64,000 bases of DNA from a virus (IMGVR_UViG_3300048065_001187:86767-150766); one strand, 5' to 3'. Numbered from the stretch's first letter, positions 19,877 through 43,206 are shown. Numbers and translations are program-made. The notes: generated from the sequence alone by a model not told the origin.

Positions 19877-20128
19877 ATGTCAGATAAAAAAGAAAATACA
19901 GAGTGGAATGATCGCGAGATCGGTGCATTATGGGTAAACGTAAAGCAAGGCAGTAATGACAAGTACCTAACGGGGCAAGTCAATGGAGAAAAGGTCATCA
20001 TGTTTAAAAACAAGTACAAGGATGATAATCCTAAGGCTCCAGATTTCCGTATGTACAAGCAAAAAGATCAAGAAGGAGCTACCAAGTCTGCTCAAAAACA
20101 AGAAGAACCTGAAGTAGATCTTATCTAA
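19877..20128 (+). CDS. DUF736-like small protein
   Basis: EIGALW...YLTG...KAPDFR motif and acidic tail. Confidence 0.6.
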   Translation: MSDKKENTEWNDREIGALWVNVKQGSNDKYLTGQVNGEKVIMFKNKYKDDNPKAPDFRMYKQKDQEGATKSAQKQEEPEVDLI

Positions 20129-21249
20129 TGAACAATAAGTACGGATTAGTTTGTGTTTCTAAAATCCTACAAGAAGAAGATAAATCAAATTCTTTTGTAG
20201 GCATCACTAGAAAAGCTTATGCTGAGCTTGCGTCAGAAAAAGGCGATCAAGAAGCAAAGAAAAAACTGAAAGATGAAATCCTTCATAATCTAAACTTAAC
20301 TGTAAAGATTATAGATTTCTGCCGTACTAATAATATTGATCACTATAGATTAAATACTTCTATCTTTGGCATCATAGCAGATCCTTCCTTTGATTTATCT
20401 GTCAATGATTTACCTCAGCGTGAAGATGTTCTTGATGCAATCAAAGAGATAGGAAGAACTTCTATTACAAAAGGGGTATCTTTATCCATTCAGCCTGATA
20501 AATTTTGTAAGCTGATAGACGATGACGATGGTGTTGTAGAGAAATCAATCAAGGAGTTAAATTTCTACTCTTGGTTTCTTGATGAAATCGGAACGCAGGA
20601 GAATATTTCTGCTCCGATCCATCTGCATCTAAACTCTCAGCCTGAAAAACAAGATCATGATTCTTACTGTGATTTCACTGATAGGTTTTATGAGAATTTT
20701 AAGGAACTTGATTCAGGAGCTCAGCGGCGTTTAGTTTTAAAGAATGCTGACCATGGTGTTTGGAGTGCGTTTAATTTATTTAAATATTTGCATGTCTATT
20801 GTTTTGAAGAACACGATTTTGGATTTCCTTTGGCATACAATAATTTATTTGATTCCTTAAACCCATCTAAAATAGATAACTCAGTTGTCGATCAACAGAT
20901 AAATGTAGGAGCATTTCACGAAACATGGAGCGGTGTTGTTCCTGTTTTTACTTGGACTGAATCTAAAAGTGCAGATCAACCAAGGGCATTTGCCCCTGAG
21001 CTTTCTGCTCATATTCCTGACTTTGGTTATCAAATCAAATGGGAAGTAGATGTCACTGACAAGGACATAGCTATACTAAAATTATTCTCTGAAGAAGGTC
21101 CAAGCAGAATTTCTGAAGAGGCTCTTCGTAAGATTACTCGTGGAAGATATCAAAAAGTAACCAACAACTATAATGCACTATATGAAGCGGCGAGACAAGT
21201 CAACATTGTTGCTGAAAACAATGACGATCAAATAGTTGGCGGACAATAA
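20128..21249 (+). CDS. UvsE/UVDE-fold protein, predicted catalytically inactive paralogue
   Basis: Colinear with the UvsE at 42199 (GLxCxSxIL, TRK, ILHN, HYRL, ELNF, PVF, KWE), but the metal ligands are substituted. Confidence 0.8.
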   Translation: MNNKYGLVCVSKILQEEDKSNSFVGITRKAYAELASEKGDQEAKKKLKDEILHNLNLTVKIIDFCRTNNIDHYRLNTSIFGIIADPSFDLSVNDLPQREDVLDAIKEIGRTSITKGVSLSIQPDKFCKLIDDDDGVVEKSIKELNFYSWFLDEIGTQENISAPIHLHLNSQPEKQDHDSYCDFTDRFYENFKELDSGAQRRLVLKNADHGVWSAFNLFKYLHVYCFEEHDFGFPLAYNNLFDSLNPSKIDNSVVDQQINVGAFHETWSGVVPVFTWTESKSADQPRAFAPELSAHIPDFGYQIKWEVDVTDKDIAILKLFSEEGPSRISEEALRKITRGRYQKVTNNYNALYEAARQVNIVAENNDDQIVGGQ

Positions 21250-21676: not shown

Positions 21677-22957
21677 ATGAATACAAACGAATTAAACAGA
21701 AGAGAATTTATTGCTAGAGCCGCCAAATCTTATTTGGGGGTAGGGCTAATGCCTTTGGTTGGGTCTTACATTCACGATAACGCATATGCCCTCACCCCGG
21801 GCACTCGCCCTGCAAAAGCACGGCATGTCATTTACTTGAATATGGCTGGAGCAATGTCGCATCTAGACACCCTTGACCCCAAGCCTCAAAGCCCCGATGT
21901 TCAAGGTCCAGTTGAAGCTATACAAACAAGTGTTGATGATTTATTTCTTTCTGAAAACTTACCTACAGTTGCTAGGCATATGCATAATGCCGCCATTGTT
22001 CGTTCAGTAACCAGTAATCAAGGTGCACATGAACAGGCTAGCTATCTTATGCATACAAGCTATCAAAAACGCGGCACAATTGTACATCCAACCTTTGGTA
22101 GCTGGGTTTCAAAACTTTCCGGCTCTATCAACAGAACTATTCCTGCGAATGTAAAGATCGGTGGGGGAGGAGGCGGAGCTGGCTTCTTAGAATCTCGCTA
22201 CGGAGCTTTACCTCTTAGAAATCCTAAAGCAGGGTTAGCTAACAGCTCAATGGCTGACTATTTAGACAGCACACAATTTAATGATAGAATAAAAGCTGCG
22301 GAACAATTAAATGCAGTATTTAGCGAGCAATATAATCAAAAACAAATTCGTGCTTATACTGATTTATATAAAGATGCAGTTAAATTAATGCAGAGTGAAG
22401 ATTTAAAGGCATTTGATATTTCTGCTGAGCCAGAAGCTGTGACTGAATTATACGGAGACAGTAACTTTGGTCAGGGATGCTTGCTTGCAAGAAGATTGAT
22501 TGAGAATAAAGTTCGGTATGTTGAAGTAACTCGCGGGGGATGGGATACACATGATAACAATTTTGATCGCGTGGCTGCTAATTGTGCAGATATTGATAAA
22601 GCATTAGGTGCATTACTTTTTGATTTAGAAATTCGTGGACTACTTAATGAAACCTTAGTTGTTCTTACATCTGAATTTGGGCGCACTCCTAAAATCAATC
22701 CAAGAGATGGTAGAGATCATTGGCCAAAAGCTTTCTCTGCTTTCTTTGCTGGTGGAGCAGTAAAAGGCGGCACAATATATGGTCAGAGCGATGATAAAGG
22801 TATGGAAGTTGCGGAAAACCCTGTAAAACCTGAGGATTTAAATGCAACAATAGCTTATGCATTAGGGTTATCGCTTAACGACATTCATTACTCTCCCTCT
22901 GGAAGACCTTTTCAAATTGCACACAAAGGTCAACCAATTCTAGATATATTAGCATAA
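21677..22957 (+). CDS. DUF1501 family protein with a Tat signal peptide
   Basis: LNRREF twin-arginine signal. VIYLNMAGAMSHLDTLDP, FGQGCLLARRL, GWDTH, SEFGRTP, GRDHW and GGAVKGG motifs. Confidence 0.9.
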   Translation: MNTNELNRREFIARAAKSYLGVGLMPLVGSYIHDNAYALTPGTRPAKARHVIYLNMAGAMSHLDTLDPKPQSPDVQGPVEAIQTSVDDLFLSENLPTVARHMHNAAIVRSVTSNQGAHEQASYLMHTSYQKRGTIVHPTFGSWVSKLSGSINRTIPANVKIGGGGGGAGFLESRYGALPLRNPKAGLANSSMADYLDSTQFNDRIKAAEQLNAVFSEQYNQKQIRAYTDLYKDAVKLMQSEDLKAFDISAEPEAVTELYGDSNFGQGCLLARRLIENKVRYVEVTRGGWDTHDNNFDRVAANCADIDKALGALLFDLEIRGLLNETLVVLTSEFGRTPKINPRDGRDHWPKAFSAFFAGGAVKGGTIYGQSDDKGMEVAENPVKPEDLNATIAYALGLSLNDIHYSPSGRPFQIAHKGQPILDILA

Positions 22958-22989
22958 AAAACCCCCTATTTCTAGGGGGCTTTACTTTT
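22956..22989. terminator. Intrinsic terminator, probably bidirectional
   Basis: A-run, then CCCCCTA-TTTC-TAGGGGG hairpin (22962-22979), then a T-rich tail, between convergent genes. Confidence 0.75.
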
Positions 22990-23026: not shown

Positions 23027-23833
23027 TTATTCAGGGCGTTTACCTAAAGGTTTTCCGTCTTGACCAATTTCACCAGCTCTAATTTTAGTCGCCGATACCT
23101 CTTGAAGCTCTTTACTTAACTCAAGTTGCTCAATATTGTAGCCTACGCCCCTTCCATAAAACACATCTGTAATATTAGGAAGTTCAACTACTTTTATTTT
23201 ATTCCCAAATTCAGAACATGCTGCATGTATTTCTGCTTTTACTTTTTCAAAATCATAAGGATTCTTTTCGTCTATACCAGCAACATCTCTTAATGCTATA
23301 CAGCATTGCCCTGTTCTTTTGATTGATTCTGCTACCAAAGTTTTGTGTCCAATATGAAACGGTTGATATCTACCTATGAGTAGTGCTGTTGGTGCTTGAT
23401 TATCCCATGCTTCTGTCTCATTTAATTTATCCATAACTTTATCTGCCCAATCGTCTGCATTGCCATCAGTCAATCTAATATCGTAGTTCAGGGGACGTTC
23501 AAACATTTTATTAGTATCTTCGTATCTACCTTCCATGATTCTATCAACCCATATTGTGAAGTCAGCCCCAAAAGCTTGCCTTGTTTCTTGCGTCGGGCAA
23601 ACGAAGTCGGCAATTACATATCCTCCACCTAATTTAGCCCAATCGCAAAGCTTTCCCATTCTTGTGGCATGCTTTATTCTATCTTCTGAGGAAAACCCTA
23701 GCTCAGAATATATGTCCTGCCTAACAGCATCTGCATTAAACCATGCGGCGTTTAACTTGTGAACCAATATTTCGGCAAGTGTTGTTTTGCCGGAACCAGG
23801 TAGACCCATAATTAAAATTTTTCTCTTAGTCAT
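23027..23833 (-). CDS. cysC: Adenylylsulfate kinase-like domain fused to a HIGH-class nucleotidyltransferase domain
   Basis: GLPGSGKTT, NADAVR, LGFSSEDR and DFVCP (CysC-like). C-terminal GRYQPFHIGH, NPY and SATKIR. Confidence 0.75.
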   Translation of the reverse strand: MTKRKILIMGLPGSGKTTLAEILVHKLNAAWFNADAVRQDIYSELGFSSEDRIKHATRMGKLCDWAKLGGGYVIADFVCPTQETRQAFGADFTIWVDRIMEGRYEDTNKMFERPLNYDIRLTDGNADDWADKVMDKLNETEAWDNQAPTALLIGRYQPFHIGHKTLVAESIKRTGQCCIALRDVAGIDEKNPYDFEKVKAEIHAACSEFGNKIKVVELPNITDVFYGRGVGYNIEQLELSKELQEVSATKIRAGEIGQDGKPLGKRPE

Positions 23834-23874
23834 GATTTATATTACATCCAAATCATAAAAGTTAGAAAAAAAAC

Positions 23875-23903
23875 TTGACTTTAAAATGAATCTTTAGTAT
23901 ACT
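23875..23903 (+). promoter_or_regulatory. sigma70-type promoter
   Basis: TTGACT-N17-TATACT. Confidence 0.7.
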
Positions 23904-23917
23904 CTGTATATTCAATT

Positions 23918-24130
23918 ATGAAAATTATTCGAAAAAATGTTATTAAAGGCTCAGATACCGTTTATGTAGTAACTCGTAACGGTAGAAGAGTTGAGGATAC
24001 TAATTATAAAACAAAGCATGAAGCGGAATATCGAGCAGATTGCTTACATGAAATGGTTAAACAGTATGACCACACATCTGTTGGAAAAATTGATATTGTT
24101 TACACATCAAGGCCTCATAAAATTTATTAA
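23918..24130 (+). CDS. Hypothetical phage protein
   Basis: ORF follows the promoter and is TAATG-coupled to dut. Confidence 0.6.
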   Translation: MKIIRKNVIKGSDTVYVVTRNGRRVEDTNYKTKHEAEYRADCLHEMVKQYDHTSVGKIDIVYTSRPHKIY

Positions 24131-24558
24131 TGAAAGTAAAATTTAAAAAATTAGTACCGCATGCCCAGCCTCCTTCTCAGGCTAATTCTGGTGACGCTGG
24201 TTACGATCTAACGGCTACAGCAGTAAACTATCCTACTGTAAGCGAAGGTGTATTTACTGAAATTTGCACAGGATTATCTTTTGAGATACCAAAAGGTTAT
24301 GTAGGTCTTGTTTTTCCTAGGTCTAGCATCAGCAAGACTAAGCATTTTTTAAGAAATTCTGTTGGTGTTATTGATAGTGGGTATCGTGGCGAAGTAAAAC
24401 TTAGATTTTCTACAGACGAATCCAATACATCTTACAAGATAGGTGATAGGGTTGGTCAAATTGTATTTATTAAATTACCTAAAATAGAATTAATAGAATC
24501 TGATGCTTTATCTGATTCACAAAGAAGCAAAGGAGGCTTTGGTAGCAGTGGCTCTTAA
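24130..24558 (+). CDS. dut: dUTPase (trimeric)
   Basis: DAGYDL, PRSS, GVIDSGYRGE, RVGQ and GGFGSSG motifs. Confidence 0.95.
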   Translation: MKVKFKKLVPHAQPPSQANSGDAGYDLTATAVNYPTVSEGVFTEICTGLSFEIPKGYVGLVFPRSSISKTKHFLRNSVGVIDSGYRGEVKLRFSTDESNTSYKIGDRVGQIVFIKLPKIELIESDALSDSQRSKGGFGSSGS

Positions 24559-24766
24559 TTACAATATAATAAATTATTGCTTAAATAAGTTTTGTCCTTA
24601 TTTAATTATCTCTTTCTTATTATTTTATAATTCTGGACTCGACTTATGGAAAGGTGGTATCATTTTTTTGGCCTGTTGTTTTGCTGACAAGTTTTCTTTT
24701 CGTGCAGGTTACAGTCTAGCGTATTGTCAAGCTAAAGGTATAGATTTAAATAAAGATGCTGAATAA
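24548..24766 (+). CDS. Small membrane protein
   Basis: Two hydrophobic segments. Start uncertain (GTG 24548). Confidence 0.45.
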   Translation: MALNYNIINYCLNKFCPYLIISFLLFYNSGLDLWKGGIIFLACCFADKFSFRAGYSLAYCQAKGIDLNKDAE

Positions 24767-25016
24767 TTTATTAACTAAGATGCAATCGTTCTCTCGTAGG
24801 CTTAAAAGAGCTATGTCAGGGCAAAGATACTACCTTATTTATCGTTGTGCCGATGGAAAAACAAAAACATATCTGATAGGAGATATTGATTTATATAAAT
24901 CTTTTGGTAATAAAAATGAAAGCAGGGACAACGCTGGATTCAGAGCCTATTGTTTTGCTAGAAAGCAAATCAGATCCTTCAGGCATGACAGAATAGTTTC
25001 CCTTACGAAGAAATAA
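24756..25016 (+). CDS. Stand-alone WYL-like domain protein
   Basis: C-terminal AYCFARKQIRSFRHDRI matches the WYL RxFRxDRI signature. Confidence 0.6.
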   Translation: MLNNLLTKMQSFSRRLKRAMSGQRYYLIYRCADGKTKTYLIGDIDLYKSFGNKNESRDNAGFRAYCFARKQIRSFRHDRIVSLTKK

Positions 25017-25018
25017 TT

Positions 25019-25597
25019 TTGGATGCTTTTTTTAGTATTTGTTTCATTGTAGGTATATTTATATATCTATATGTTCAATATTTTAATACCCCGAAAGAAG
25101 ATAATTCATCCGAAATTGACACAATTTTAGAGCGAGAAAGGGATAAAGAAATATTTTATACCCAACAAATCAATAAATTAGGTGATGAAATAAATTTATT
25201 GAAAAACAAGTCAGCCGAACTTAATATCTTAAATACTAATCTTGAAAAATCATATAGCGAATTAGAAACAGACTATATAAAAAATAAAAACGACTTAGAA
25301 AATCAAATTTTTGAAATTTCTGAACAAAAAAAGAAAGTAACATCCCAAAAGAAAAGTAGTGAAGTACGACTTGGACATATTGCCGAAACTCTGGCACCTT
25401 TTCTCGATCAATTTGAATTTGATCCTGAAACTTGTGTCTTTCTAGGAAAACCTATTGACTATATATCTTTTGGAGACGATGAAATCACACTTATTGAAGT
25501 TAAAAGTGGCAAAAGCCAGCTTAATTCTAGGCAACGCCATATTAGAGATCAAGTAAAAGCTAAACTTGTATCTTGGAAAGAAGTAAGAATTAAATAA
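25019..25597 (+). CDS. Membrane-anchored Holliday junction resolvase-like PD-(D/E)XK endonuclease (Endonuc_Holl-like)
   Basis: N-terminal TM and coiled coil, then GHIAETLAPF, FLGKPIDY, IEVKSG and QRHIRD. Confidence 0.75.
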   Translation: MDAFFSICFIVGIFIYLYVQYFNTPKEDNSSEIDTILERERDKEIFYTQQINKLGDEINLLKNKSAELNILNTNLEKSYSELETDYIKNKNDLENQIFEISEQKKKVTSQKKSSEVRLGHIAETLAPFLDQFEFDPETCVFLGKPIDYISFGDDEITLIEVKSGKSQLNSRQRHIRDQVKAKLVSWKEVRIK

Positions 25598-25620
25598 TTT
25601 TTATTAACACAAACATAGTT

Positions 25621-26274
25621 ATGAATACTACTAAAATCATTGTGACTGCCCTTCTAGGGTTTTTTATTAACGCCGCTTCTGCTCAGCAGAATTCAGCTAA
25701 CATCGGATATACTTCTGATTATTTTTATAGAGGTGCCGCAGTTGCTGAAGAATCAGTTCAAAGTTCGATTGGTGCAAGCTACGAACTTTCTTCTGTTACC
25801 CTGTCAGCAGGAGCCTTTACTAATCAGGCTGTAGAAAACGGATCAGATGTTTATATTCTTACTGCAGGAGCTTCAACAAGCTTTGCGGATGATTTAGTCT
25901 CTCTTTACGGTGGACTGAATCATTTTGAGGATGTAGATGGAGTTTCTTTGTTTGAGTTTGCTCTTTCTGCTGGCTTAAGCACCCCTCTTTCTCCAACTGT
26001 GAATCTTTATCGTTCATTTGATGATGATTTATTTACTTGGGAAATTGGCATTAGCCATAAGTTTGACCTTGAAGTTGTCGGTCTTTGCCTCCATGCCTTG
26101 TATGGTGAATCTGAATTGACTGAAGCACTTGAGTCAGACTATTTCACTGCGGGAGCTAACTTATCCAAAGGTATAAGTGATAATGCAGAAGTCGTTTTGT
26201 CTGCCGATTATGTTGATTCTGATATCACTCAAGATGAGTGGGTTTTTGGTGGTGCAGTTTCAATCAAGTTCTAA
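25621..26274 (+). CDS. TorF/Gcw_chp (TIGR02001)-like outer-membrane beta-barrel protein
   Basis: Sec signal (AASA), TSDYFYRG N-terminal motif, alternating beta strands, C-terminal Phe. Confidence 0.75.
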   Translation: MNTTKIIVTALLGFFINAASAQQNSANIGYTSDYFYRGAAVAEESVQSSIGASYELSSVTLSAGAFTNQAVENGSDVYILTAGASTSFADDLVSLYGGLNHFEDVDGVSLFEFALSAGLSTPLSPTVNLYRSFDDDLFTWEIGISHKFDLEVVGLCLHALYGESELTEALESDYFTAGANLSKGISDNAEVVLSADYVDSDITQDEWVFGGAVSIKF

Positions 26275-26293
26275 TTTAACCCTAATATAAAAC

Positions 26294-26545
26294 ATGAAAA
26301 ATACTATTGATCTAATCAAGTCCTTCGCAGGAGGTATTACTAGCGTATTGCTTTCCATTATTGGATTGCTTGTTGTTGCCCAAGTCGTATTCGGTGCAGG
26401 TGCACCTATCGATATCATCAGCAATCTTCAGCAAGTCGTAACCGGCTTTGTTGGTGAAGGAGCAAGTCTTGCAGGTATCATTACATTACTTCTTCTTGTT
26501 GCCCTTTTCCAAAAAGGAAATTGCTGCGACTCTGGTAAAAAGTAA
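26294..26545 (+). CDS. Small two-TM membrane protein
   Basis: Two hydrophobic helices, follows the porin gene. Confidence 0.65.
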   Translation: MKNTIDLIKSFAGGITSVLLSIIGLLVVAQVVFGAGAPIDIISNLQQVVTGFVGEGASLAGIITLLLLVALFQKGNCCDSGKK

Positions 26546-26554
26546 TTTTTATCC

Positions 26555-26600
26555 TTGACTTATTAGAGGGAGGCGGCTATAATAGTCGTCTCCCTCTTTT
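26555..26600 (+). terminator. Terminator hairpin overlapping a sigma70 promoter
   Basis: 15-bp stem 26565-26579/26583-26597 (two G:U pairs) plus T tail. TTGACT(26555)-N17-TATAAT(26578) has its -10 box across the loop. Confidence 0.7.
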
Positions 26601-26616
26601 ATTATATACCATAAAT

Positions 26617-28164
26617 ATGAATTACAAAGTTTTATCTCTTTTCTCGAATGTAGGTTTTGGTGAATTTTACTTGAACGATTTACCGCTTGATGTAGTTGTC
26701 GCAAATGAACTAGAGCAAGATCGTGCAAACTTTTATAATGTCCTGCATCCATCCACAAAGATGATTAACGGCGACATTACAGATAGTTCTATTAGATCTG
26801 AGATAATTTCTGAATGCAAGAAACGCGGGCCAATTGACATTGTGATGGCTACACCTCCATGCCAAGGTATGAGTCTAGCAAATGCAACAAAAAGCCCTAA
26901 CGATGAGAGAAACACCTTAATAATTCATGCTATGGATTTATTTAAAGAGGTTGGGGCTAAGTATATGTTAATAGAAAATGTGCCCAATATGCCAAATACA
27001 TATATTTCGCACAAAGACTATGATGAACCTGTAAAAATTTTAGATTTCATTAATGATTCTATTCCTGAGGGTGCATATTGTGTTTCAAAAGTTTTGAATG
27101 GTAAAAATTTTGGGACTGCACAAGAGAGAAAGAGGTCTATTACTCTAATTTCCACAGAATACAAGTGGGATCATCCTAAACCTGATGACAATATTTTGTG
27201 CCTAGACGATGTTATTCGTGATGAAGTCAAATTTCCTAGCTTAGACGAAGATTCTTCGGATATTCCTTGGCATTTTTTATCCAAACAAAACCCTCGACAC
27301 ATTGATTGGATGAAATATGCACCTTCAGGCAAGAGTGCTTATTTTAATGAGAAAGATCACTACCCTTGTCACGAAGAAGAAAACAAGAAAGGAAGCGGGA
27401 CTACAATAATTGAATATGTCAAAAAAACGAATGGAGAAAATGGTTGGCACACTAATCCTCCTGTTTTAATTGATGAACACGGAGTCGTTACTGACGCACC
27501 TTTTACAGAAGAGACTATAGACGGCAAAGAACTTTTAGCCATTGAGATACCCGAAGGATACAAACTAAAAAGAGAAATTTATGGATTTACTACTGCTTAT
27601 AAAAGAATGGATTGGCATAAGCCTTCTACAACAGTGACAATGACCAATGGCTCCATCTCAAGCCAAAACAATGTTCATCCAGGCAAGGAAAATGGTGATG
27701 GAACTTATTCTGACGCAAGAGTATTCTCGATTAGAGAGCTGCTTGCAGTTTGCGGCTTGCCGATTAATTTACTTGACGAATTTTGCGAAAAAAAGAAACC
27801 AAACACAAAGTATAAATATTGCTCAGGTAGTTGGGGATACCAATACCATCCTACTTTTATCAGGAAAGTTCTTGGTGAAATGTTTTTACCTAAAATGTCT
27901 TTAGAAATTATGAAAACCCTACCTTTATTCCAAGAAAATAAAATTATGCCTGAATTAAAAGAAGAAACGCTTAAAGATTTTGCACCTGCAAACTCGGAAA
28001 CTATCATTAAAGCCCAAGGCAATAGCCATGTAGAACTGATGCAGAAAGTGAAGAACTGCCGTCAAGAAAATATATTATTAAGATCTGAAAATAAAGAACT
28101 GAAACTTAAACTAGAGCAATTTGAAATTGAAAAGGCTGAATTAAATAGTATATTTGATGATTGA
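26617..28164 (+). CDS. DNA cytosine-C5 methyltransferase
   Basis: SLFSNVG (motif I variant), TPPCQG (IV), ENV (VI), QERKR (VIII), RVFSIRE (IX), LGE (X). C-terminal coiled-coil extension. Confidence 0.9.
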   Translation: MNYKVLSLFSNVGFGEFYLNDLPLDVVVANELEQDRANFYNVLHPSTKMINGDITDSSIRSEIISECKKRGPIDIVMATPPCQGMSLANATKSPNDERNTLIIHAMDLFKEVGAKYMLIENVPNMPNTYISHKDYDEPVKILDFINDSIPEGAYCVSKVLNGKNFGTAQERKRSITLISTEYKWDHPKPDDNILCLDDVIRDEVKFPSLDEDSSDIPWHFLSKQNPRHIDWMKYAPSGKSAYFNEKDHYPCHEEENKKGSGTTIIEYVKKTNGENGWHTNPPVLIDEHGVVTDAPFTEETIDGKELLAIEIPEGYKLKREIYGFTTAYKRMDWHKPSTTVTMTNGSISSQNNVHPGKENGDGTYSDARVFSIRELLAVCGLPINLLDEFCEKKKPNTKYKYCSGSWGYQYHPTFIRKVLGEMFLPKMSLEIMKTLPLFQENKIMPELKEETLKDFAPANSETIIKAQGNSHVELMQKVKNCRQENILLRSENKELKLKLEQFEIEKAELNSIFDD

Positions 28165-29035
28165 AGATTTTATACAAAATGTAAAGCATTTAAACCACTC
28201 TAATCAGCGAGACGGGGAATCTTACTACCATGCCTACTTGTGCGACAGTCAAAAAGAGCACATTGAAACAATAAGAAGATGTTTGAATAAACAAAAAAAT
28301 CTTTTTATTCCAACCGTCAAAAAGACTGAGGGCAAATTTAATAATAATAAATTCCGACAAGTTTTTAGTCTTGCTAAGTATTTAGATGATGACAAATTAA
28401 CTAGCCTAAGAACATTTCTTAGTCTTGGGGGCGATAATCAATCTGTGCCTTATTTGTTTGCGTCTATATTATTTAATTGTCATACCGAAAAGACTATTGA
28501 TTTTATTGTTAAAGCTGTTGGCTCCAATAATAATTTGCAAAAGCGTCACCCAATTCAGTTTGCATACGATTTAGTTACAGGATGGATTCCAGAACATTTC
28601 TTAGCTAATTGTTTTGATTTAGAAAAATCTGGCTGCGATAGTGATTACAAATTAGCCAAAGGTTCATCGATAAATGGCTCTCAGGATTTTATTTTCAAGG
28701 GAGAGAAGATTGAATTATCAATGGATTATACGGGCACTATAAAATATAAAAATAAATTCCACCTAAGATATAATAAATGGAATAAAATCCAAAAAGATAA
28801 AAGCAACCTATTGATTATATGTACTAAATCTTGGAAGTATTATTTTTATTCAGCAGATACTTATTTAAATAATATAAGACATAAATACTTAGATAGAATT
28901 GAATCGTGGAGTGATCGCCAATCTGTTGCTGGCTATGAACTCACAGACTGGGAAAAGCTAGAACCTATAGCATTAAACCCTTCAAACCTGTCGAACTCTT
29001 TTAATAATATACTTTCCTTAAAAAATGAAAACTAA
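28157..29035 (+). CDS. Putative restriction endonuclease (PD-(D/E)XK-like)
   Basis: Overlaps the MTase stop. E...QDF...IELSMD resembles a PD-(D/E)xK variant. Confidence 0.45.
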   Translation: MIEDFIQNVKHLNHSNQRDGESYYHAYLCDSQKEHIETIRRCLNKQKNLFIPTVKKTEGKFNNNKFRQVFSLAKYLDDDKLTSLRTFLSLGGDNQSVPYLFASILFNCHTEKTIDFIVKAVGSNNNLQKRHPIQFAYDLVTGWIPEHFLANCFDLEKSGCDSDYKLAKGSSINGSQDFIFKGEKIELSMDYTGTIKYKNKFHLRYNKWNKIQKDKSNLLIICTKSWKYYFYSADTYLNNIRHKYLDRIESWSDRQSVAGYELTDWEKLEPIALNPSNLSNSFNNILSLKNEN

Positions 29036-29092
29036 AAAAATTTTCCAAAGGCAAAGTTGAATTATAGTGGACTATATATTATAATAAAATGT

Positions 29093-29299
29093 ATGGACGA
29101 CGATTTTGAAGAACCTAGCGGACCAAAAGATTACGATGAGCAGACTGATGCTTTTCGTTTTGATCTTGATGATTTAGTGGAAAGGTATCTTCATGAGTTT
29201 GATATTAATACAATAACAATGATAGGAGCATTACAAGAAAAAATTCAAGAGCTAGTAAATGATGGTGGCTTTGAAGCTGATTTAGATATAGATGAATAA
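29093..29299 (+). CDS. Acidic hypothetical protein
   Basis: ORF with ATG start, very acidic. Confidence 0.55.
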   Translation: MDDDFEEPSGPKDYDEQTDAFRFDLDDLVERYLHEFDINTITMIGALQEKIQELVNDGGFEADLDIDE

Positions 29300-29861
29300 T
29301 ATAATTGGAGTTACAGGTTTTGCTCGTTCCGGCAAAGACACTTTTTACAAAGAGAGCTCAAAACTTTTGTCGCGTGCAAATTGTTTTCGTTATGCATTTG
29401 CGGATGCTCTAAAAGAAGAGTCTGATGATTTCTTAAAAAAGAATGTAGGTATTTCTGCTTTTACAGAAGACTCTGAAGATAAAGAATTGATTCGTCCCTT
29501 TCTTGTTACATACGGAACAGAGCTAAGACGGAAGCTAAATCCTAACTGCTGGATATCCAAGGTTGAAGAGATGATTGAGAAAAATCATCAACCTTCAGAT
29601 AAAAATTTTATATTCGTTACTGATGTGCGTTTTGAAAATGAAGCTCAGTGGGTAAAATCCATTGGGGGTATAATAACTAAGGTTAGCAGGGAAGGAGTGA
29701 AGGCCGCCAATCAGGATGAACATATACAATCTGCATTGATTGAAAAATATGTTGACCTGCATATTATGTGGCCCACTTATAAGCCTGGGGATATTTCACA
29801 AAGTCATACTTTGCTAAAGCCAGTTCTTAAAAAAAATTTCCGCAACTATGTTGAGTACTAG
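29292..29861 (+). CDS. Deoxynucleoside monophosphate kinase
   Basis: GFARSGKDT, FADALK, YGTE and TDVRFENE motifs. Confidence 0.88.
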   Translation: MNNIIGVTGFARSGKDTFYKESSKLLSRANCFRYAFADALKEESDDFLKKNVGISAFTEDSEDKELIRPFLVTYGTELRRKLNPNCWISKVEEMIEKNHQPSDKNFIFVTDVRFENEAQWVKSIGGIITKVSREGVKAANQDEHIQSALIEKYVDLHIMWPTYKPGDISQSHTLLKPVLKKNFRNYVEY

Positions 29862-29871
29862 TGGACTATAT

Positions 29872-30042
29872 ATGAAATACAAATCACAGAAAAAGTATCA
29901 TAAAACAGACAAAGGAAAAGAAGCTTTATCAAAAGCACAAAAAAAATACGATGAAGAAAATGCTGAAAAGCGCCGAGAACAAAAACGTGAGTATATGCGC
30001 AGAAAAAGAGCCGAAAACCCAAACTATTGTAAGTGGAAATGA
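29872..30042 (+). CDS. Small basic protein
   Basis: MKYKSQKKY...REYMRRKR. Confidence 0.5.
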   Translation: MKYKSQKKYHKTDKGKEALSKAQKKYDEENAEKRREQKREYMRRKRAENPNYCKWK

Positions 30043-30179
30043 GTAAATCCAAAAAATGTGGTAATAAGTGTGGCGTTTCTGGAAGAAATGGCAAAGGAGA
30101 TTCTCCAAGAAACAATCATTCTAAAAAATTTAAATCGAATTACGAAAAAATCAATTGGTCTAAAAAAACAAAAAAGTAA
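30039..30179 (+). CDS. 46-aa basic phage protein (GKGDSPR motif)
   Basis: MSKSKK...GKGDSPRNN...NYEKINW. ATGA overlap with the upstream ORF. Below the ORF-track cutoff. Confidence 0.6.
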   Translation: MSKSKKCGNKCGVSGRNGKGDSPRNNHSKKFKSNYEKINWSKKTKK

Positions 30180-30224
30180 ATTTAATTCTTGATCGAATAT
30201 TATTCTTGTGGTATAGTGTCATCC

Positions 30225-30539
30225 ATGAAAGCCTTAAAAAAAGAACCTGAAATTTATGATTTTGCACATTACTGGAAAGTTCAATATAAAGAAAACAGAT
30301 TAAATGGAGAAAAATTTAATTTCAGAACAATTATTTATTGTAGATCAAAAGCTTTTGCTTTTAATATCCTAAAAAAGAAAACTAGTGAAGATAATCCTGG
30401 TGCCACTGTTTCTTGCGTTGAGATATCAAGAATAGGCTCCCATTCTCGTTTTAATAACAAAAAACTATCAGTCGATGATTGGTTTCATATTAGAAATGCA
30501 TCTTTCCCTAATGAGGTAAATATTTTATTTAAAAAATGA
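30225..30539 (+). CDS. Hypothetical protein
   Basis: TTGATC-N17-TATAGT promoter 7 nt upstream of the ATG. Confidence 0.55.
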   Translation: MKALKKEPEIYDFAHYWKVQYKENRLNGEKFNFRTIIYCRSKAFAFNILKKKTSEDNPGATVSCVEISRIGSHSRFNNKKLSVDDWFHIRNASFPNEVNILFKK

Positions 30540-31213
30540 GTGTTACCAAACAAGAAATAGATCGGTATGATGAATTACTTGCTAATTTCCAGCCTGATAT
30601 CAGATATATAATCAGAAGATTCAGAAGAAATTTCCATATACTTTCAGAAGAAGAAATTGCCTCGGAAGTCAATAAAAGACTCTCTATGTATAAGTCAAAA
30701 TATATCCAGAATGATAGAGCTTGTCTCACCAAAGAAGGTTTCAGTCGTTTTGTTTATGCTTGTGCGAGAAATGCTGTTTTTTGGACAATGAGAGGAACTA
30801 CCGGCAAAGATGAACGCTATAGAAAAACTTTTACTACTTGCAGCTTCATGAATCCTGATGAATCTGATGAATCTGGATCTGAATGGATTTTTAAAGTTAT
30901 GCTTTTAGCTAAAGAAGATAGTTTTCTACAGCAAATAGACGAACCTAATAACGTCGAGGTTATTTTAAAATGGATCAGGGATTATAGTGATTTCCTAAGC
31001 GACAAGGAAATGATTGTTTTTAACGACTATGTTTCAGGGAAGCCTCAAAGAGAAACTGCACTCACTATAAAAGAAACTAGACAATCAGTCGCAATTATAC
31101 AAAAAACTGTCGCAGAAAAGATTAGATCTCATATTAAAGTAAACATTAATCAAGATAATTCGGCGGCTAGAATTAAAAAAGGCTACGAATCAATAAATCA
31201 TTTGTTTGGATAG
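30536..31213 (+). CDS. Sigma70-family-like transcription factor
   Basis: Region-2-like FSRFVYACARNAV and region-4 HTH LSDKEMIVF...GKPQRETA...TRQSV. Confidence 0.65.
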   Translation: MSVTKQEIDRYDELLANFQPDIRYIIRRFRRNFHILSEEEIASEVNKRLSMYKSKYIQNDRACLTKEGFSRFVYACARNAVFWTMRGTTGKDERYRKTFTTCSFMNPDESDESGSEWIFKVMLLAKEDSFLQQIDEPNNVEVILKWIRDYSDFLSDKEMIVFNDYVSGKPQRETALTIKETRQSVAIIQKTVAEKIRSHIKVNINQDNSAARIKKGYESINHLFG

Positions 31214-31237
31214 ATAATAAATTGTGTATATACTTAT

Positions 31238-31468
31238 GTGAAGTTTTCTTTTGGTGAAGTTGTAATGTTAATCGGGCTAGCCCTACTAGCTATCATCGCA
31301 TACAATCAATATAATCAGCTCGAATACGCAAAAGATACAATACAGATTCAACATGAGGCTATTAATAAGCAACAAGAGCTGATCAACCATCAGATAAGAT
31401 ATATTGGAATAATGGAGTCTCAGGCTGTCAATTCACGCCAAAACCCTATCTATAGAGGCCCATCATGA
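31238..31468 (+). CDS. Small TM plus coiled-coil protein
   Basis: N-terminal TM. GTGTA 9 nt upstream. Confidence 0.55.
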   Translation: MKFSFGEVVMLIGLALLAIIAYNQYNQLEYAKDTIQIQHEAINKQQELINHQIRYIGIMESQAVNSRQNPIYRGPS

Positions 31469-31842
31469 CCTTAAGAGAGCTGATAGAGTCCAACAATTAC
31501 AAAAAAGTCTTCAATTACCTCTATCAAACTTATTTTAAAGGTAAAAAAAGCAGCATAGTAATAGAATTAGATTTAAAATTTTATAAATTATGGTCTGATC
31601 TGAAAAAGCTTAAAAAATCAAATCAAGATTTAATAAAAATTTACATAACTAAAACTCCAGGCGAAGACGGTTTTATAGATGTTTGTTTATTTGATGAAAT
31701 AAAAGATGAAATTTTACCTCTTGATTTTCTAGGCTCTCAAGATATAATAGATACAGAGGTTTATAAAGCATTGAATATTAATGATTACGAAACTTTGGCG
31801 CATATATTATATTATTTAAATAGTTTAGAAGATATTACATGA
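31465..31842 (+). CDS. Hypothetical protein
   Basis: ATGA-coupled ORF. Confidence 0.55.
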   Translation: MTLRELIESNNYKKVFNYLYQTYFKGKKSSIVIELDLKFYKLWSDLKKLKKSNQDLIKIYITKTPGEDGFIDVCLFDEIKDEILPLDFLGSQDIIDTEVYKALNINDYETLAHILYYLNSLEDIT

Positions 31843-32237
31843 AAAAAGTAGCAATTAGTGGTTATTTTGATCCAATTCACATTGGGCATTTAGAATATAT
31901 CAGGCTTGCGCGTGAGCTTGGAGATTATTTAATTGTAATTGTGAATAACGACAAACAAGCAGTCCTTAAGAAGGGCAAGTCTTTTATGTGTGAAGATGAT
32001 CGTCTGGCGATAGTCGCTCAAATCAAAGGGGTGGACGAAGCAGTTATGTCTATTGATGATGATGAAACTGTATGCAAGACACTTGATTTAATCAAGCCAG
32101 ACATCTTTGCTAACGGCGGAGATCGCAGTAATTCAGAAATTCCAGAATTTAAAATATGTAAAGAAAATGGCACTCAAGTCGTGGATGGATTAGGTAACAA
32201 GATCCGATCATCCTCAGAACTTACGGGCATCAAATGA
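31839..32237 (+). CDS. Cytidylyltransferase-family (HIGH) nucleotidyltransferase
   Basis: SGYFDPIHIGH, NGGDR and KIRSSS motifs. Confidence 0.88.
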   Translation: MKKVAISGYFDPIHIGHLEYIRLARELGDYLIVIVNNDKQAVLKKGKSFMCEDDRLAIVAQIKGVDEAVMSIDDDETVCKTLDLIKPDIFANGGDRSNSEIPEFKICKENGTQVVDGLGNKIRSSSELTGIK

Positions 32238-32743
32238 ATTTATACAATCTACCTACTCATGCTAAAAGTCCTCGAATCGTTAACGCAGTCATTGAAATTG
32301 AAGAGGGTTCAAAAAACAAATATGAATATGATGGAGATTTGGGGGTATTCATGTATGATAGATGTCTCAATTCTGCTATGGTTTATCCCGCAAGTTATGG
32401 TTTCATTCCTGGGACTTTATGCGAAGATGGCGATCCTTTAGATATAATGGTGATCAGCCCCGAACCTATCAAAAGAGCAACAGTTCTTGAGGCAAAAGTT
32501 CTTGGCGTTTTGGATATGGAGGACGAAGGAGAAAAAGATTACAAAGTTATAGCTGTGCCAAATTTTTATACCAGAAAATATAGCAATATCAAAGATGTAG
32601 AAGATAGTTTTCTTAAAATTGCAAAGAATTTTTTTGCTCACTATAAAGATTTGAGCATGAGTGGGGATCGAGTTAAAGTATTTGAGTGGCATCATAAACA
32701 ATATGCCTATGATATCATCGATAATAGGCTTACTAATAAATAA
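32234..32743 (+). CDS. ppa: Inorganic pyrophosphatase, family I
   Basis: KYEYD, YPASYGFIP, DGDPLD, DEGEKDYK and FFAHYK motifs. Confidence 0.95.
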   Translation: MNLYNLPTHAKSPRIVNAVIEIEEGSKNKYEYDGDLGVFMYDRCLNSAMVYPASYGFIPGTLCEDGDPLDIMVISPEPIKRATVLEAKVLGVLDMEDEGEKDYKVIAVPNFYTRKYSNIKDVEDSFLKIAKNFFAHYKDLSMSGDRVKVFEWHHKQYAYDIIDNRLTNK

Positions 32744-32744
32744 T

Positions 32745-32819
32745 ATGGAAACATTAATTGTAATTGGGGTACTAGCAATCCTTTACGGGGCCTGCGCTAA
32801 AGAAGCATATAAATGGTAA
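32745..32819 (+). CDS. 24-aa membrane micropeptide
   Basis: METLIVIGVLAILYGACAKEAYKW. Confidence 0.5.
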   Translation: METLIVIGVLAILYGACAKEAYKW

Positions 32820-32838
32820 ATAATGTGTAACTCTCTAT

Positions 32839-33033
32839 GTGAGAGGAGTCTTTGTATTACTAATTGTTATTTTATGTAGCAGTTGTATGGTCAAAAAAGC
32901 GCCACCCGAAGAAAAAGATTGGCTCAAAATTTACGAAAAAGAGCTACAAATCGCAAGAGAAAACAATGATATAGAGGCTTGGACTTATTTTTGGGGCGAA
33001 TATATAAAAGAGTTACAAAATAAGAATAAATGA
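32839..33033 (+). CDS. Small lipoprotein
   Basis: Hydrophobic signal with a CSSC lipobox-like end. GTGTA 9 nt upstream. Confidence 0.6.
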   Translation: MRGVFVLLIVILCSSCMVKKAPPEEKDWLKIYEKELQIARENNDIEAWTYFWGEYIKELQNKNK

Positions 33034-33821
33034 AAATAACTAAAGAATTTATCGATAAGCTATTAATTTTTGGCGCCGAACTTTCTAAAGAAGTTTGCCA
33101 AATACAAGAGCTCGGCTTCGAAACTTTACAAAAAGACGATAAAAGTCCATTAACAGAAGCCGACCTTCATTCAAACAAAAGAATTTGTGAATTTTTGGCG
33201 GCGAATACAGATACTTCAAATATCATATCCGAAGAAAATAAAGAGGTTCAATATGAAGACCGCGCCAAATGGGATTATTATTGGCTCATAGACCCCATAG
33301 ACGGCACAAAAGAGTTCGTAAAGGGAGGGGATGACTTCTGCATTAATATTGCCCTATGCAAGGGCTCAGAGCCTATATTTGGCTATGTAGCTTGTCCAAA
33401 GAAGCAAGACCAATACTTCGCTATAAAAGATCGGGGTGCTTTTAAAAACGGCGAACCAATTTACGCCAAATATTCTTACAATCCTCAAGGCGAACCAATC
33501 AAAGTAGTTGCAAGTAAATCCCATTTGAATAAAGAGACAGAGGAATTTATTAATAATTTAAAAAAGAATCACGAGGTTGAGACCTTAAACATAGGTAGTT
33601 CATTAAAATTTTGCTTAGTAGCAGAGGGCGAAGCCCACATATATCCTAGGTTTGGGCCTACTATGGAGTGGGATACTTGTGCGCCGCAAATCATTGCAGA
33701 AGAGAGTGGCGCAGATGTCTGTATTGCAGAAAATAGTCAGCCATTAGAATATAATAAAAAGAATTTACTTAACCCTTTTTTTATTGTTTCTTGTAAAATT
33801 TTAAAATATTTCTTGACTTGA
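33030..33821 (+). CDS. cysQ: 3'(2'),5'-bisphosphate nucleotidase CysQ
   Basis: SPLTEAD, ISEE, DPIDGTKEF, SKSH, GSSLK and EWDTCA motifs. Confidence 0.92.
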   Translation: MKITKEFIDKLLIFGAELSKEVCQIQELGFETLQKDDKSPLTEADLHSNKRICEFLAANTDTSNIISEENKEVQYEDRAKWDYYWLIDPIDGTKEFVKGGDDFCINIALCKGSEPIFGYVACPKKQDQYFAIKDRGAFKNGEPIYAKYSYNPQGEPIKVVASKSHLNKETEEFINNLKKNHEVETLNIGSSLKFCLVAEGEAHIYPRFGPTMEWDTCAPQIIAEESGADVCIAENSQPLEYNKKNLLNPFFIVSCKILKYFLT

Positions 33822-42198: not shown

Positions 42199-43206
42199 AT
42201 GACACAAATACTAGGACTAACTTGCATAAGTGAAATACTAAAAGAAAAGGATAAAGCAAAATATTCTTTTCGCACAATGACTCGCAAACGCTTTAATGAT
42301 TTGTGTAACCAAGAAGGTAGAGATGAAGCAGTCAATCAATTATCTGAAAGAATTTTGCACAATGTTATTGTTACTCAATATATTGTCAATCATTGTCATT
42401 CCTCAAATCTTAGGCATTATCGTCTTAGTTCTGCTCTTTTTCCTCTCCTTACCGACCAAACTTTGGATATTTCTCTTGAAGATTTACCGCACAAAGCAAG
42501 AATAGAACAAGAGCTAAAGTTAGTAGGTTTAATTGCGGAAAAGTTTGATATATCAATTGGTTCTCACCCCGATCAATTTAATGTTCTTGCATCTCCCGAT
42601 AGAGACAAAGTTAATCGTACAATAAACGAACTTAATTTTCAAGCAAGCGTTCTTGATATGATTGGTTTACCTCAAGATCATACTGCACCAATGAATATTC
42701 ATATTAACTATTCGCCAAAAGAAGATGAAACATTGGAAGTTGTTGCTACTAGATTTTTTCGCAACCTTTCTATGTGTGATAAAGGTGTTTACAAGCGTCT
42801 TACTATTGAAAACGAAGACAAAGGTTTCTTTAATGTAGATAACTGCATGGCATTTAGTGATTACTTGTTTAAAACATTTGGTGCAATGATCCCTGTTTGT
42901 TTTGACAACTTACATCATATGTGCAACCCATCAGAAGAGTCTTGTATTAAGTGGCAAGCCGAGCGTTGTGCATATACTTGGGTTAGTCAAGGGGATGGTG
43001 ACAGCAATTTCATTGCTCCTGTCTTTCATTGGTCAGAAGGCAATCCACAAAAACCTCGCTCTCATGCAGATTATTTTTCTTTTATGAATGCTCCACCATA
43101 CATTGCTATTGAACCTAACAAACCTGTGAAGTGGGAATGTGAAGTTAAGCAAAAAGACAAAGCAATTCAAGTCTTGCGAAATAATCTAGCAGAAAAAAGC
43201 GCGTGA
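42199..43206 (+). CDS. uvsE: UV-damage endonuclease UvsE
   Basis: HPDQF, NIH, LTIENED, FDNLHH, FHWSE, RSHAD and EVKQKD catalytic motifs are intact. Confidence 0.92.
   Translation: MTQILGLTCISEILKEKDKAKYSFRTMTRKRFNDLCNQEGRDEAVNQLSERILHNVIVTQYIVNHCHSSNLRHYRLSSALFPLLTDQTLDISLEDLPHKARIEQELKLVGLIAEKFDISIGSHPDQFNVLASPDRDKVNRTINELNFQASVLDMIGLPQDHTAPMNIHINYSPKEDETLEVVATRFFRNLSMCDKGVYKRLTIENEDKGFFNVDNCMAFSDYLFKTFGAMIPVCFDNLHHMCNPSEESCIKWQAERCAYTWVSQGDGDSNFIAPVFHWSEGNPQKPRSHADYFSFMNAPPYIAIEPNKPVKWECEVKQKDKAIQVLRNNLAEKSA

Follow-up and report, generated by a model that had tools for sequence, protein, structure and literature searches.

In the metazoan synthases of 3'-phosphoadenosine 5'-phosphosulfate (PAPS), PAPSS1 and PAPSS2 (PDB entries 1x6v and 1xjq), an adenosine 5'-phosphosulfate (APS) kinase forms the N-terminal part of the chain and an adenylyltransferase of the HIGH superfamily the C-terminal part. 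A supply of PAPS for one defined purpose is represented by NodPQ, a dedicated source for the sulfotransferase NodH that stands beside the housekeeping CysDN. Here, we describe a fusion protein of 268 amino acids with the domain order of PAPSS that is encoded on a 64,000-nucleotide stretch of viral DNA (IMGVR_UViG_3300048065_001187:86767-150766, hereafter the window). The window comprises bases 86,767-150,766 of a 150,766-bp IMG/VR virus record with a CheckV completeness of 100%, and its source is an uncultured marine phage of ~150 kb. The module around the fusion is very probably a PAPS-supply unit. We furthermore propose, with a probability of roughly 0.6, that the NMN (nicotinamide mononucleotide) adenylyltransferase (NMNAT)-like C-terminal domain of about 125 residues is an ATP sulfurylase of a class not recognised until now, the third beside Sat and CysDN, which, together with a trimmed kinase, would be the PAPS source in many Alphaproteobacteria including SAR11 and in their phages.

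All four genes named in an initial annotation of the window, i.e., the fusion, a small HIGH nucleotidyltransferase, a family-I inorganic pyrophosphatase (PPase) and CysQ, were recovered in their places as open reading frames (ORFs) with profile matches (Table 1). The fusion of a kinase with a HIGH domain stood up to inspection of the ORF, of its motifs (P-loop GLPGSGKT, GRYQPFHIGH and SATKIR) and of its Pfam matches. An ATGTA motif is located at 23847-23843, 14 nt ahead of the start codon. More than 7,500 homologues were found among metagenome proteins at E ≤ 1e-3, and the AlphaFold model of the whole protein reached a predicted local distance difference test (pLDDT) value of 92.7. The fusion is therefore no chance ORF.

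The N-terminal half scored 47.7 with the Pfam APS_kinase profile (gathering cut-off 21.1), matching profile positions 5-91 of 152, while its TIGR00455 score of 43.1 fell below the equivalog cut-off of 138.7. The match thus covers the first 60% of the APS kinase profile plus a short C-terminal stretch. The Walker A motif GLPGSGKT occupies residues 9-17, and K16 is invariant among 56 family members. In a phmmer search of the PDB, APS kinases ranked first, at E-values of 7e-6 and above. Residues D35, R38, F47-S48 and D51-R52 align with the D-x-x-R and LGFS-x-x-DR motifs of solved enzymes (2yvu, 2gks, 4bzq), and FVCP with P80 aligns with the FISP/FVSP motif of APS kinases in the PDB; the equivalents of these residues hold adenine and phosphosulfate in the Penicillium chrysogenum and human structures. 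In the 56-member alignment, which reaches down to 33% identity, R38 is invariant, and conservation is 90% or more at D35, F47, R52 and P80. Note that the first aspartate of the DGD motif is an asparagine in the phage kinase (N-A-D35-A-V-R38), a position that varies across the family. When the model of the fusion was submitted to Foldseek, the top 40-plus matches were all APS kinases (E 1e-8). VIA-align yielded a Z-score of 18.3 for Mycobacterium tuberculosis CysC (rmsd, i.e., root-mean-square deviation, 2.0 over 127 residues), 18.2 for APE1195 and 17.7 for the Aquifex Sat-APSK protein as opposed to 16.2 for gluconate kinase, and sequence identity was 25-30% to APS kinases versus 13-16% to kinases, gluconate kinase among them, with comparable fold scores. 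We assign the N-terminal domain as a trimmed APS kinase on the grounds of its sequence, its fold and its ligand-binding residues, and its predicted phosphorylation of the 3'-OH of APS, yielding PAPS, is well supported. The APS-kinase-like character given to this half in the initial annotation is thus borne out at both the sequence and the fold level.

In the C-terminal domain, GR(Y/F)QPFHxGH, R182, NP192, PNI and S247-A-T-x-x-R252 are conserved or invariant across the family, and the loop Y226-G-R228-(D/G)-V-G-Y232 is invariant. HxGH, SxTxxR and further residues are kept in sequences with as little as 35% identity. For comparison, three Sat sequences were drawn from genomes found in this analysis; these read QTRNPxHRAH, then GRDHAG, then SGTKxR. 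The invariant loop of the phage domain, followed by S-A-T-x-x-R, recalls GRDHAG and S-G-T-x-x-R of Sat, a likeness of sequence order only. That this domain is a sulfurylase appears to us somewhat more probable than its alternatives taken together, on the basis of co-occurrence with sulfotransferases, gene adjacency, a triple fusion and complementarity with CysD and Sat, which are described in the following.

Seven ORFs of the phage exceed the Pfam cut-off for Sulfotransfer_2. They are located at genome positions 46 to 72 kb, upstream of the window, in a glycan cluster of ~30 kb, next to genes for a NodZ-like fucosyltransferase, an enzyme of the GDP-mannose dehydratase family, a pyruvyl transferase, UDP-galactopyranose mutase (Glf), epimerases and a sulfatase. 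Neither the Sulfotransfer_1 nor the Sulfotransfer_3 profile had a match in the phage. A match to PAPS_reduct, the CysH/CysD family, is absent not only from the window, as noted initially, but from the entire 150,766-bp genome. Since the phage is devoid of CysH, sulfation is the sensible use of PAPS, and the earlier proposal that PAPS serves sulfation rather than assimilation gains considerably from the seven sulfotransferase genes and from the glycosyltransferase found among their neighbours. The sulfatase is of the classical type (PF00884, 171 bits; genome 68801-70186, L181:6801-8186) and lies within the sulfotransferase-rich cluster; the phage therefore bears sulfate-adding as well as sulfate-removing enzymes.

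Sulfotransferases accompany the fusion in other phages as well. Sulfotransfer_2 was detected in 21 of 28 fusion-bearing IMG/VR records, in 11 of the 13 among these that are rated at least 90% complete, and in 17 of the 18 close-clade records with a fusion at least 71% identical to that studied here (up to 11 matches each). It was found in none of the 14 bacterial genomes that served as a control; a tail-sheath query for related phages without the fusion gave two near-identical contigs. Among the control genomes, that of a Synechococcus matched both the ATP-sulfurylase and the APS_kinase profiles. Of the 18 close-clade records, 14 have PPase. CysQ occurred in 6 of the 28 fusion records, all with at least five Sulfotransfer_2 matches; with the present genome included, it was found in 7 of 11 genomes having at least five such matches and in 0 of 18 others (Fisher p 0.0002). 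Joint occurrence of the fusion with PPase and CysQ, a point raised in the initial annotation, is thus seen in other phages, together with that of sulfotransferases. Among 50,697 cultured-phage records, relatives of Sulfotransfer_2 were limited to phiRSL1, DLP_6, one uncultured phage and Synechococcus phage ACG-2014f, and the kinase or the fusion was present in 15, phiRSL1 and DLP_6 among them. The sulfotransferase gene of phiRSL1 is preceded, six genes away and on the same strand, by a gene for the kinase alone.

The surroundings of these genes in cultured phages deserve a separate remark. In Ralstonia phage phiRSL1 (L093, 6998-14453), the kinase-only gene, a TET-associated glycosyltransferase, two nucleotide-sugar pyrophosphorylase-like genes, Sulfotransfer_2 and a dUMP hydroxymethylase form a string that suggests a sulfated, glycosylated 5-hydroxymethyl-pyrimidine modification of DNA. 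In Casjensviridae, 56-kb siphophages, the string consists of a Sulfotransfer_4-like gene, NADAR, the fusion and a DNA methyltransferase (Stenotrophomonas phage Bhz60, L002 4972-7385; Xylella phage Bacata, L001), and in Bhz60 the gene that precedes the fusion by two positions scores above the Sulfotransfer_4 cut-off.

In relatives of the phage, the fusion is found side by side with PPase or CysQ. A CysQ homologue begins 2 bp past the fusion stop on the same strand in one locus (L039). PPase lies beside the fusion in five loci (L019, L015, L026, L036 and L035), just upstream in L019, and within about 1 kb in L045. In L015, the fusion is followed by a gene for a 127-residue HAD-like protein and then by PPase, with overlapping stops and starts, and the same order was detected by tblastn in L026 and L036. 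This shifting adjacency of fusion, PPase and CysQ suggests a PAPS cycle. The HAD-like protein (L015:10801-11184) shows weak matches, below cut-off, to PNKP-type HAD phosphatase domains; it might be an alternative 3'-phosphatase for 3'-phosphoadenosine 5'-phosphate (PAP) in phages without CysQ.

The cellular members of the family are mainly alphaproteobacterial (Xanthobacteraceae, Hyphomicrobiaceae, Bradyrhizobium, Acetobacteraceae, Pelagibacteraceae), with SAR86 and a few others in addition. Some genomes of SAR11 and SAR86 encode kinase and HIGH domain in separate, adjacent genes. The neighbourhoods of the pair in SAR11 are variable and contain no adjacent sulfotransferase gene. In Bradyrhizobium Pha-3, two TPR-Sulfotransfer_3 genes reside directly upstream of the fusion, a cluster that recurs in seven loci. 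In Rhizobium sp. BK376, Sulfotransfer_2, kinase and HIGH domain are united in a single chain of 555 residues; this triple fusion was present on four contigs, one of them from an independent read-run assembly. Other combinations were also seen: in several metagenomic homologues, a DUF4118 membrane domain is fused at either end of the compact kinase, irrespective of whether the HIGH domain is present (P0121, on a 2-kb contig, P0178, P0189, P0200, P0203 and P0216), and the kinase is fused to an HMGL-like domain in P0273-P0277.

A search for Sat and CysD was carried out over 79 genomes, two of which were left unclassified because the match was cut at a contig end. Among the remaining 77, all 12 genomes with the kinase alone possess CysD or Sat, and a profile of the HIGH domain detected no copy elsewhere in these 12, with positive controls scoring above 177 bits. 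Among the 65 genomes in which the pair is fused or split, CysD or Sat is present in 32 and both are absent from 33. The difference yielded a Fisher p of 0.0008, or 0.013 without SAR11 and SAR86, values that overstate independence given that the genomes are phylogenetically related; many of them are metagenome-assembled genomes (MAGs) or single-cell assemblies, which makes absences soft. This pattern is what a sulfate-activating HIGH domain predicts. Several genomes carry the pair and Sulfotransfer_3 without Sat, CysD, CysH or a canonical CysC, again as soft absences. Examples lacking a sulfurylase are two 5-Mb soil MAGs (G001 and G003) and a 1.2-Mb Pelagibacter MAG (G022), in which two neighbouring genes encode kinase and HIGH domain and the assembly is largely one 1.1-Mb contig.

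Taken together, the 268-residue protein probably acts as a self-sufficient miniature PAPS synthase that converts sulfate and ATP to PAPS. Its C-terminal HIGH domain would adenylylate sulfate, forming APS and pyrophosphate (PPi), and the fused kinase would take APS on to PAPS. The PPase, whose gene adjoins that of the fusion in relatives, would remove PPi and thereby pull the unfavourable first step. PAPS would then feed the seven Sulfotransfer_2 enzymes of the glycan cluster, and CysQ would hydrolyse the PAP that they release and that would otherwise inhibit them. Because CysH is lacking, the purpose for the phage would be sulfation and not assimilation. The nearest cellular homologues are alphaproteobacterial, SAR11 included, and many such genomes are without a known ATP sulfurylase; a host, perhaps SAR11-like, that is unable to supply APS or PAPS is a likely reason for the full set.

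Apart from the relatedness and incompleteness of the surveyed genomes, the following points speak against sulfate as the substrate. A profile of the C-terminal domain, searched against the PDB, matched NadM and archaeal NMNAT (2qjt at E 1.6e-5, then 2qjo and 1f9a, to 1e-3); an ATP sulfurylase was not among its matches with a limit as loose as E ≤ 10. Profile-profile comparison (hhalign) with the three Sat sequences gave a probability of 8-10% over the HIGH region alone, and kinship with Sat by this route was rejected. The domain retains HxxH of the Sat motif Q-x-R-N-P-x-H-x-x-H and lacks its Q-x-R-N, and it is far smaller than the catalytic domain of any known sulfurylase. From its sequence, it is not classified as a member of the Sat family. 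When the domain was modelled alone (pLDDT 88.5), VIA-align Z-scores were 9.7 for phosphopantetheine adenylyltransferase (PPAT), 9.6 and 9.5 for NMNAT, 8.7 for NadR and 8.0 for Thermus thermophilus ATP sulfurylase, near-ties by which PPAT, NMNAT and sulfurylase are not separable. Foldseek with this domain gave no match at E ≤ 0.001 and the ESM Atlas returned generic viral 'cytidyltransferase' clusters alone. According to the model, the domain adopts a generic small HIGH fold, and its nearest sequences and folds are those of NMNAT and PPAT. In Casjensviridae, the fusion overlaps the NADAR gene, a hint of NAD or ADP-ribose chemistry. The PPase might just as well act for the glycan cluster, with its many steps that involve nucleotide sugars. 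Finally, half of the fusion-bearing cellular genomes have CysD or Sat, and the fusion is therefore not simply a sulfurylase replacement. The proposal of a minimal ATP sulfurylase, already put forward in the initial annotation, is thus backed by genomic context, and the sequence of the domain is NMNAT-like rather than Sat-like.

In principle, the kinase half alone could serve sulfation by drawing on APS from the host, with the HIGH domain adenylylating NMN or another phospho-compound. The NadM-, NMNAT- and PPAT-like matches, the translational coupling of NADAR to the fusion in Casjensviridae and the sulfurylases present in half of the fusion-bearing cellular genomes would all fit, as would the existence of kinase-only forms that work with CysDN or Sat of the host. 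However, the C-terminal domain is, as far as its sequence tells, not a normal NMNAT either. It stays below both NMNAT thresholds (TIGR01527 20.7 versus a cut-off of 181.2; NF002243 22.6 versus 127). GRFQPFHxGH, NPF and SxTxxR all align to 2qjt, 2qjo and 1f9a, but the alignment to 1f9a splits in two, and ~25 residues of the NMNAT middle are absent between the pieces, such that 1f9a residues ~49-109 are covered by just ~37 profile positions. It is because of this missing segment, which we take to carry the nicotinamide-binding D-I-x-x-N-x-x-W helix, that the domain is set apart from NMNAT. Neither NADAR nor NAMPT/NAPRTase was found in the phage genome. Moreover, host-derived APS does not explain why the two domains are almost universally fused or adjacent, the split genes of SAR11 and SAR86 included, and it leaves unexplained both the PPase beside the fusion and those sulfotransferase-bearing genomes that have the pair and no known sulfurylase. 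We consider this alternative unlikely. A related reading as NAD salvage, suggested by the NadM-like C-terminal domain and the NADAR gene of Casjensviridae, was rejected in view of the lack of NADAR and NAMPT in the phage and of its seven Sulfotransfer_2 genes.

A second alternative keeps both domains active in series and changes the substrate: in the manner of PPAT and dephospho-CoA kinase, they would produce a CoA-like or 3'-phospho-ADP compound, and CysQ would clear a PAP-like breakdown product. PPAT is indeed the top structural match of the C-terminal domain, some database records label homologues as phosphopantetheine adenylyltransferase, and the kinase matches only part of its profile, below NCBIfam equivalog cut-offs. 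A CoA-like product is nevertheless very improbable in view of the tight, repeated link to PAPS-type sulfotransferases, covalent fusion included, and of a kinase that keeps the residues matching those by which solved APS kinases contact phosphosulfate and adenine, and that is clearly closer in identity to these enzymes than to gluconate and other kinases. Least probable of all is an inert HIGH domain acting as an oligomerisation or nucleotide-sensing module like the APS-kinase-like regulatory domain of fungal ATP sulfurylase: the domain is very small and without Foldseek matches at E ≤ 0.001, and recruitment of domains for regulation is known in the sulfate activation pathway, but conservation of HxGH, SxTxxR and more residues at such low identity would be unexpected of a scaffold and the complementarity with CysD and Sat would be left unexplained.

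Table 1 Genes and domains of the PAPS-related region, numbered from the first base of the window
Feature	Position	Strand	Basis
Fusion, 268 aa	23027-23833	-	APS_kinase (Pfam) residues 6-87, E 2e-12; CTP_transf_like from residue 152
Fusion N-terminal domain, trimmed APS kinase	23408-23833	-	residues 1-142
Fusion C-terminal domain, minimal HIGH nucleotidyltransferase, proposed ATP sulfurylase	23030-23407	-	residues 143-268
Small nucleotidyltransferase, 132 aa, HIGH, TagD/ECT/RfaE-domain-II type	31839-32237	+	CTP_transf_like 60.9 bits
Family-I inorganic pyrophosphatase (PPase)	32234-32743	+	PF00719 162.8 bits, E 7e-48
CysQ, 3'(2'),5'-bisphosphate nucleotidase (PAP phosphatase)	33030-33821	+	TIGR01331 229.7 bits
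DUF1501 protein, twin-arginine signal	21677-22957	+	PF07394 373 bits; RREFI near N-terminus

The assignment of CysQ holds, as its TIGR01331 score narrowly exceeds the cut-off of 228.8; the next-best family, HisN, scored 96.7 bits, and Inositol_P 168.7 bits. The PPase matches PF00719 over its full length (positions 1-148 of 153), with an NF002317 score of 154 below the equivalog cut-off of 200. The ORF of the small nucleotidyltransferase overlaps that of the PPase by four bases, so that the two genes are present and coupled as first described. The enzyme has HxGH and a domain-level profile (TIGR00125, 59 bits versus a cut-off of 27.7) and passes no equivalog cut-off (TIGR02199 rfaE_dom_II, 77 bits versus 181.5). 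Its matches in the PDB are phosphoethanolamine cytidylyltransferase (3elb, E 4e-16), the Thermoplasma lipopolysaccharide-core protein 3glv (E 1e-14) and TagD (1coz, E 3e-10). It is probably a glycan-precursor enzyme, the more likely product being a sugar or alcohol activated by a nucleotide and destined for the glycans of the cluster; a link of this nucleotidyltransferase to sulfate, as implied initially, was not found. Since it adjoins PPase solely in the loci of the six closest relatives, the PPase counts as linked to the fusion and the small nucleotidyltransferase does not.

The DUF1501 gene is convergent with that of the fusion, an arrangement kept in the loci of nine relatives. The protein belongs to the alkaline phosphatase/sulfatase superfamily, and its tie to the PAPS cycle is putative; an exported phage enzyme of this sort is unusual. 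Between the two genes, a G+C-rich hairpin (CCCCCTA...TAGGGGG, 22962-22979), bordered by a run of A and by a stretch rich in T, resembles an intrinsic terminator that acts in both directions. As for general features, the G+C content is ~35%, PHROG matches in the window include tail sheath, rIIA/rIIB and a Lon-like protease, no tRNA genes were found, and a 20 kb megablast against cultured phages gave no match. The ORF at 20128-21249 looks related to UvdE (Pfam UvdE, E 7e-19); that at 42199-43206 has a UvdE-related look, its sole match being the PHROG 'endonuclease'.

Full-text searches of the literature for phage APS kinase, PAPS and sulfotransferase, for SAR11 sulfotransferases, for phiRSL1 and for pelagimyophages did not bring up any account of this enzyme, nor of a PAPS circuit in phages. 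A pelagimyophage survey mentions glycosyltransferases and rfaE and not sulfation genes. If our proposal is true, sulfate activation, a textbook step in the metabolism of sulfur, can be carried out by a very compact catalyst that has gone unrecognised and that genome surveys based on Sat and CysDN would miss, those of SAR11, among the most abundant organisms of the sea, included. SAR11, long held to lack sulfate activation, would then have a PAPS source. Large marine phages would bring along a full circuit of donor supply and by-product removal for glycan sulfation, which would point to sulfated glycans on phage or host surfaces as a widespread aspect of marine infection that has escaped study. 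A one-chain PAPS synthase of 268 residues would also be of practical value in enzymatic sulfation, which is usually limited by the supply of PAPS.

How does this locus compare with known systems? Human PAPSS1 (1x6v) aligns with both domains of the fusion in the same order (252 residues, Z 17.7), and the proposed overall reaction and its consumers, sulfotransferases, are the same. The metazoan enzymes are considerably larger, with about 620 residues. Unlike these, the phage kinase lacks part of the lid region, and the second domain has no PF01747 match, PUA-like domain or QxRNP motif; a search of the complete phage genome with the Sat profile PF01747 gave nothing at E ≤ 1. With Sat (1v47, 1j70), the C-terminal domain shares the Rossmann-like fold of the HIGH superfamily (1v47, Z 8.0 over 119 aligned residues) and the succession of HxxH, a G-R-D loop after a strand, and S-x-T-x-x-R, with inter-motif distances of 63 and 15 residues versus about 85 and 60 in Sat. 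The resemblance to NadM and archaeal NMNAT (2qjt, 2qjo, 1f9a, 1ej2) resides in near-identical GRFQPFHxGH, NPF and SxTxxR motifs. Those enzymes comprise 165-180 residues, the Y-G-R-(D/G)-V-G-Y loop stands in place of their V-Y-S-G-N region, and the genomic context of the fusion is sulfation, unlike the NAD context of NadM and NMNAT. In terms of function, the phage set resembles the combination of CysDN or NodPQ with CysC and CysQ, as it would provide for sulfate activation, APS phosphorylation, PPi removal and PAP removal. In contrast to CysDN and NodPQ, the phage is without a GTPase-coupled enzyme of the CysD/CysN type, and the whole set is borne by the phage and would serve phage-encoded sulfotransferases.

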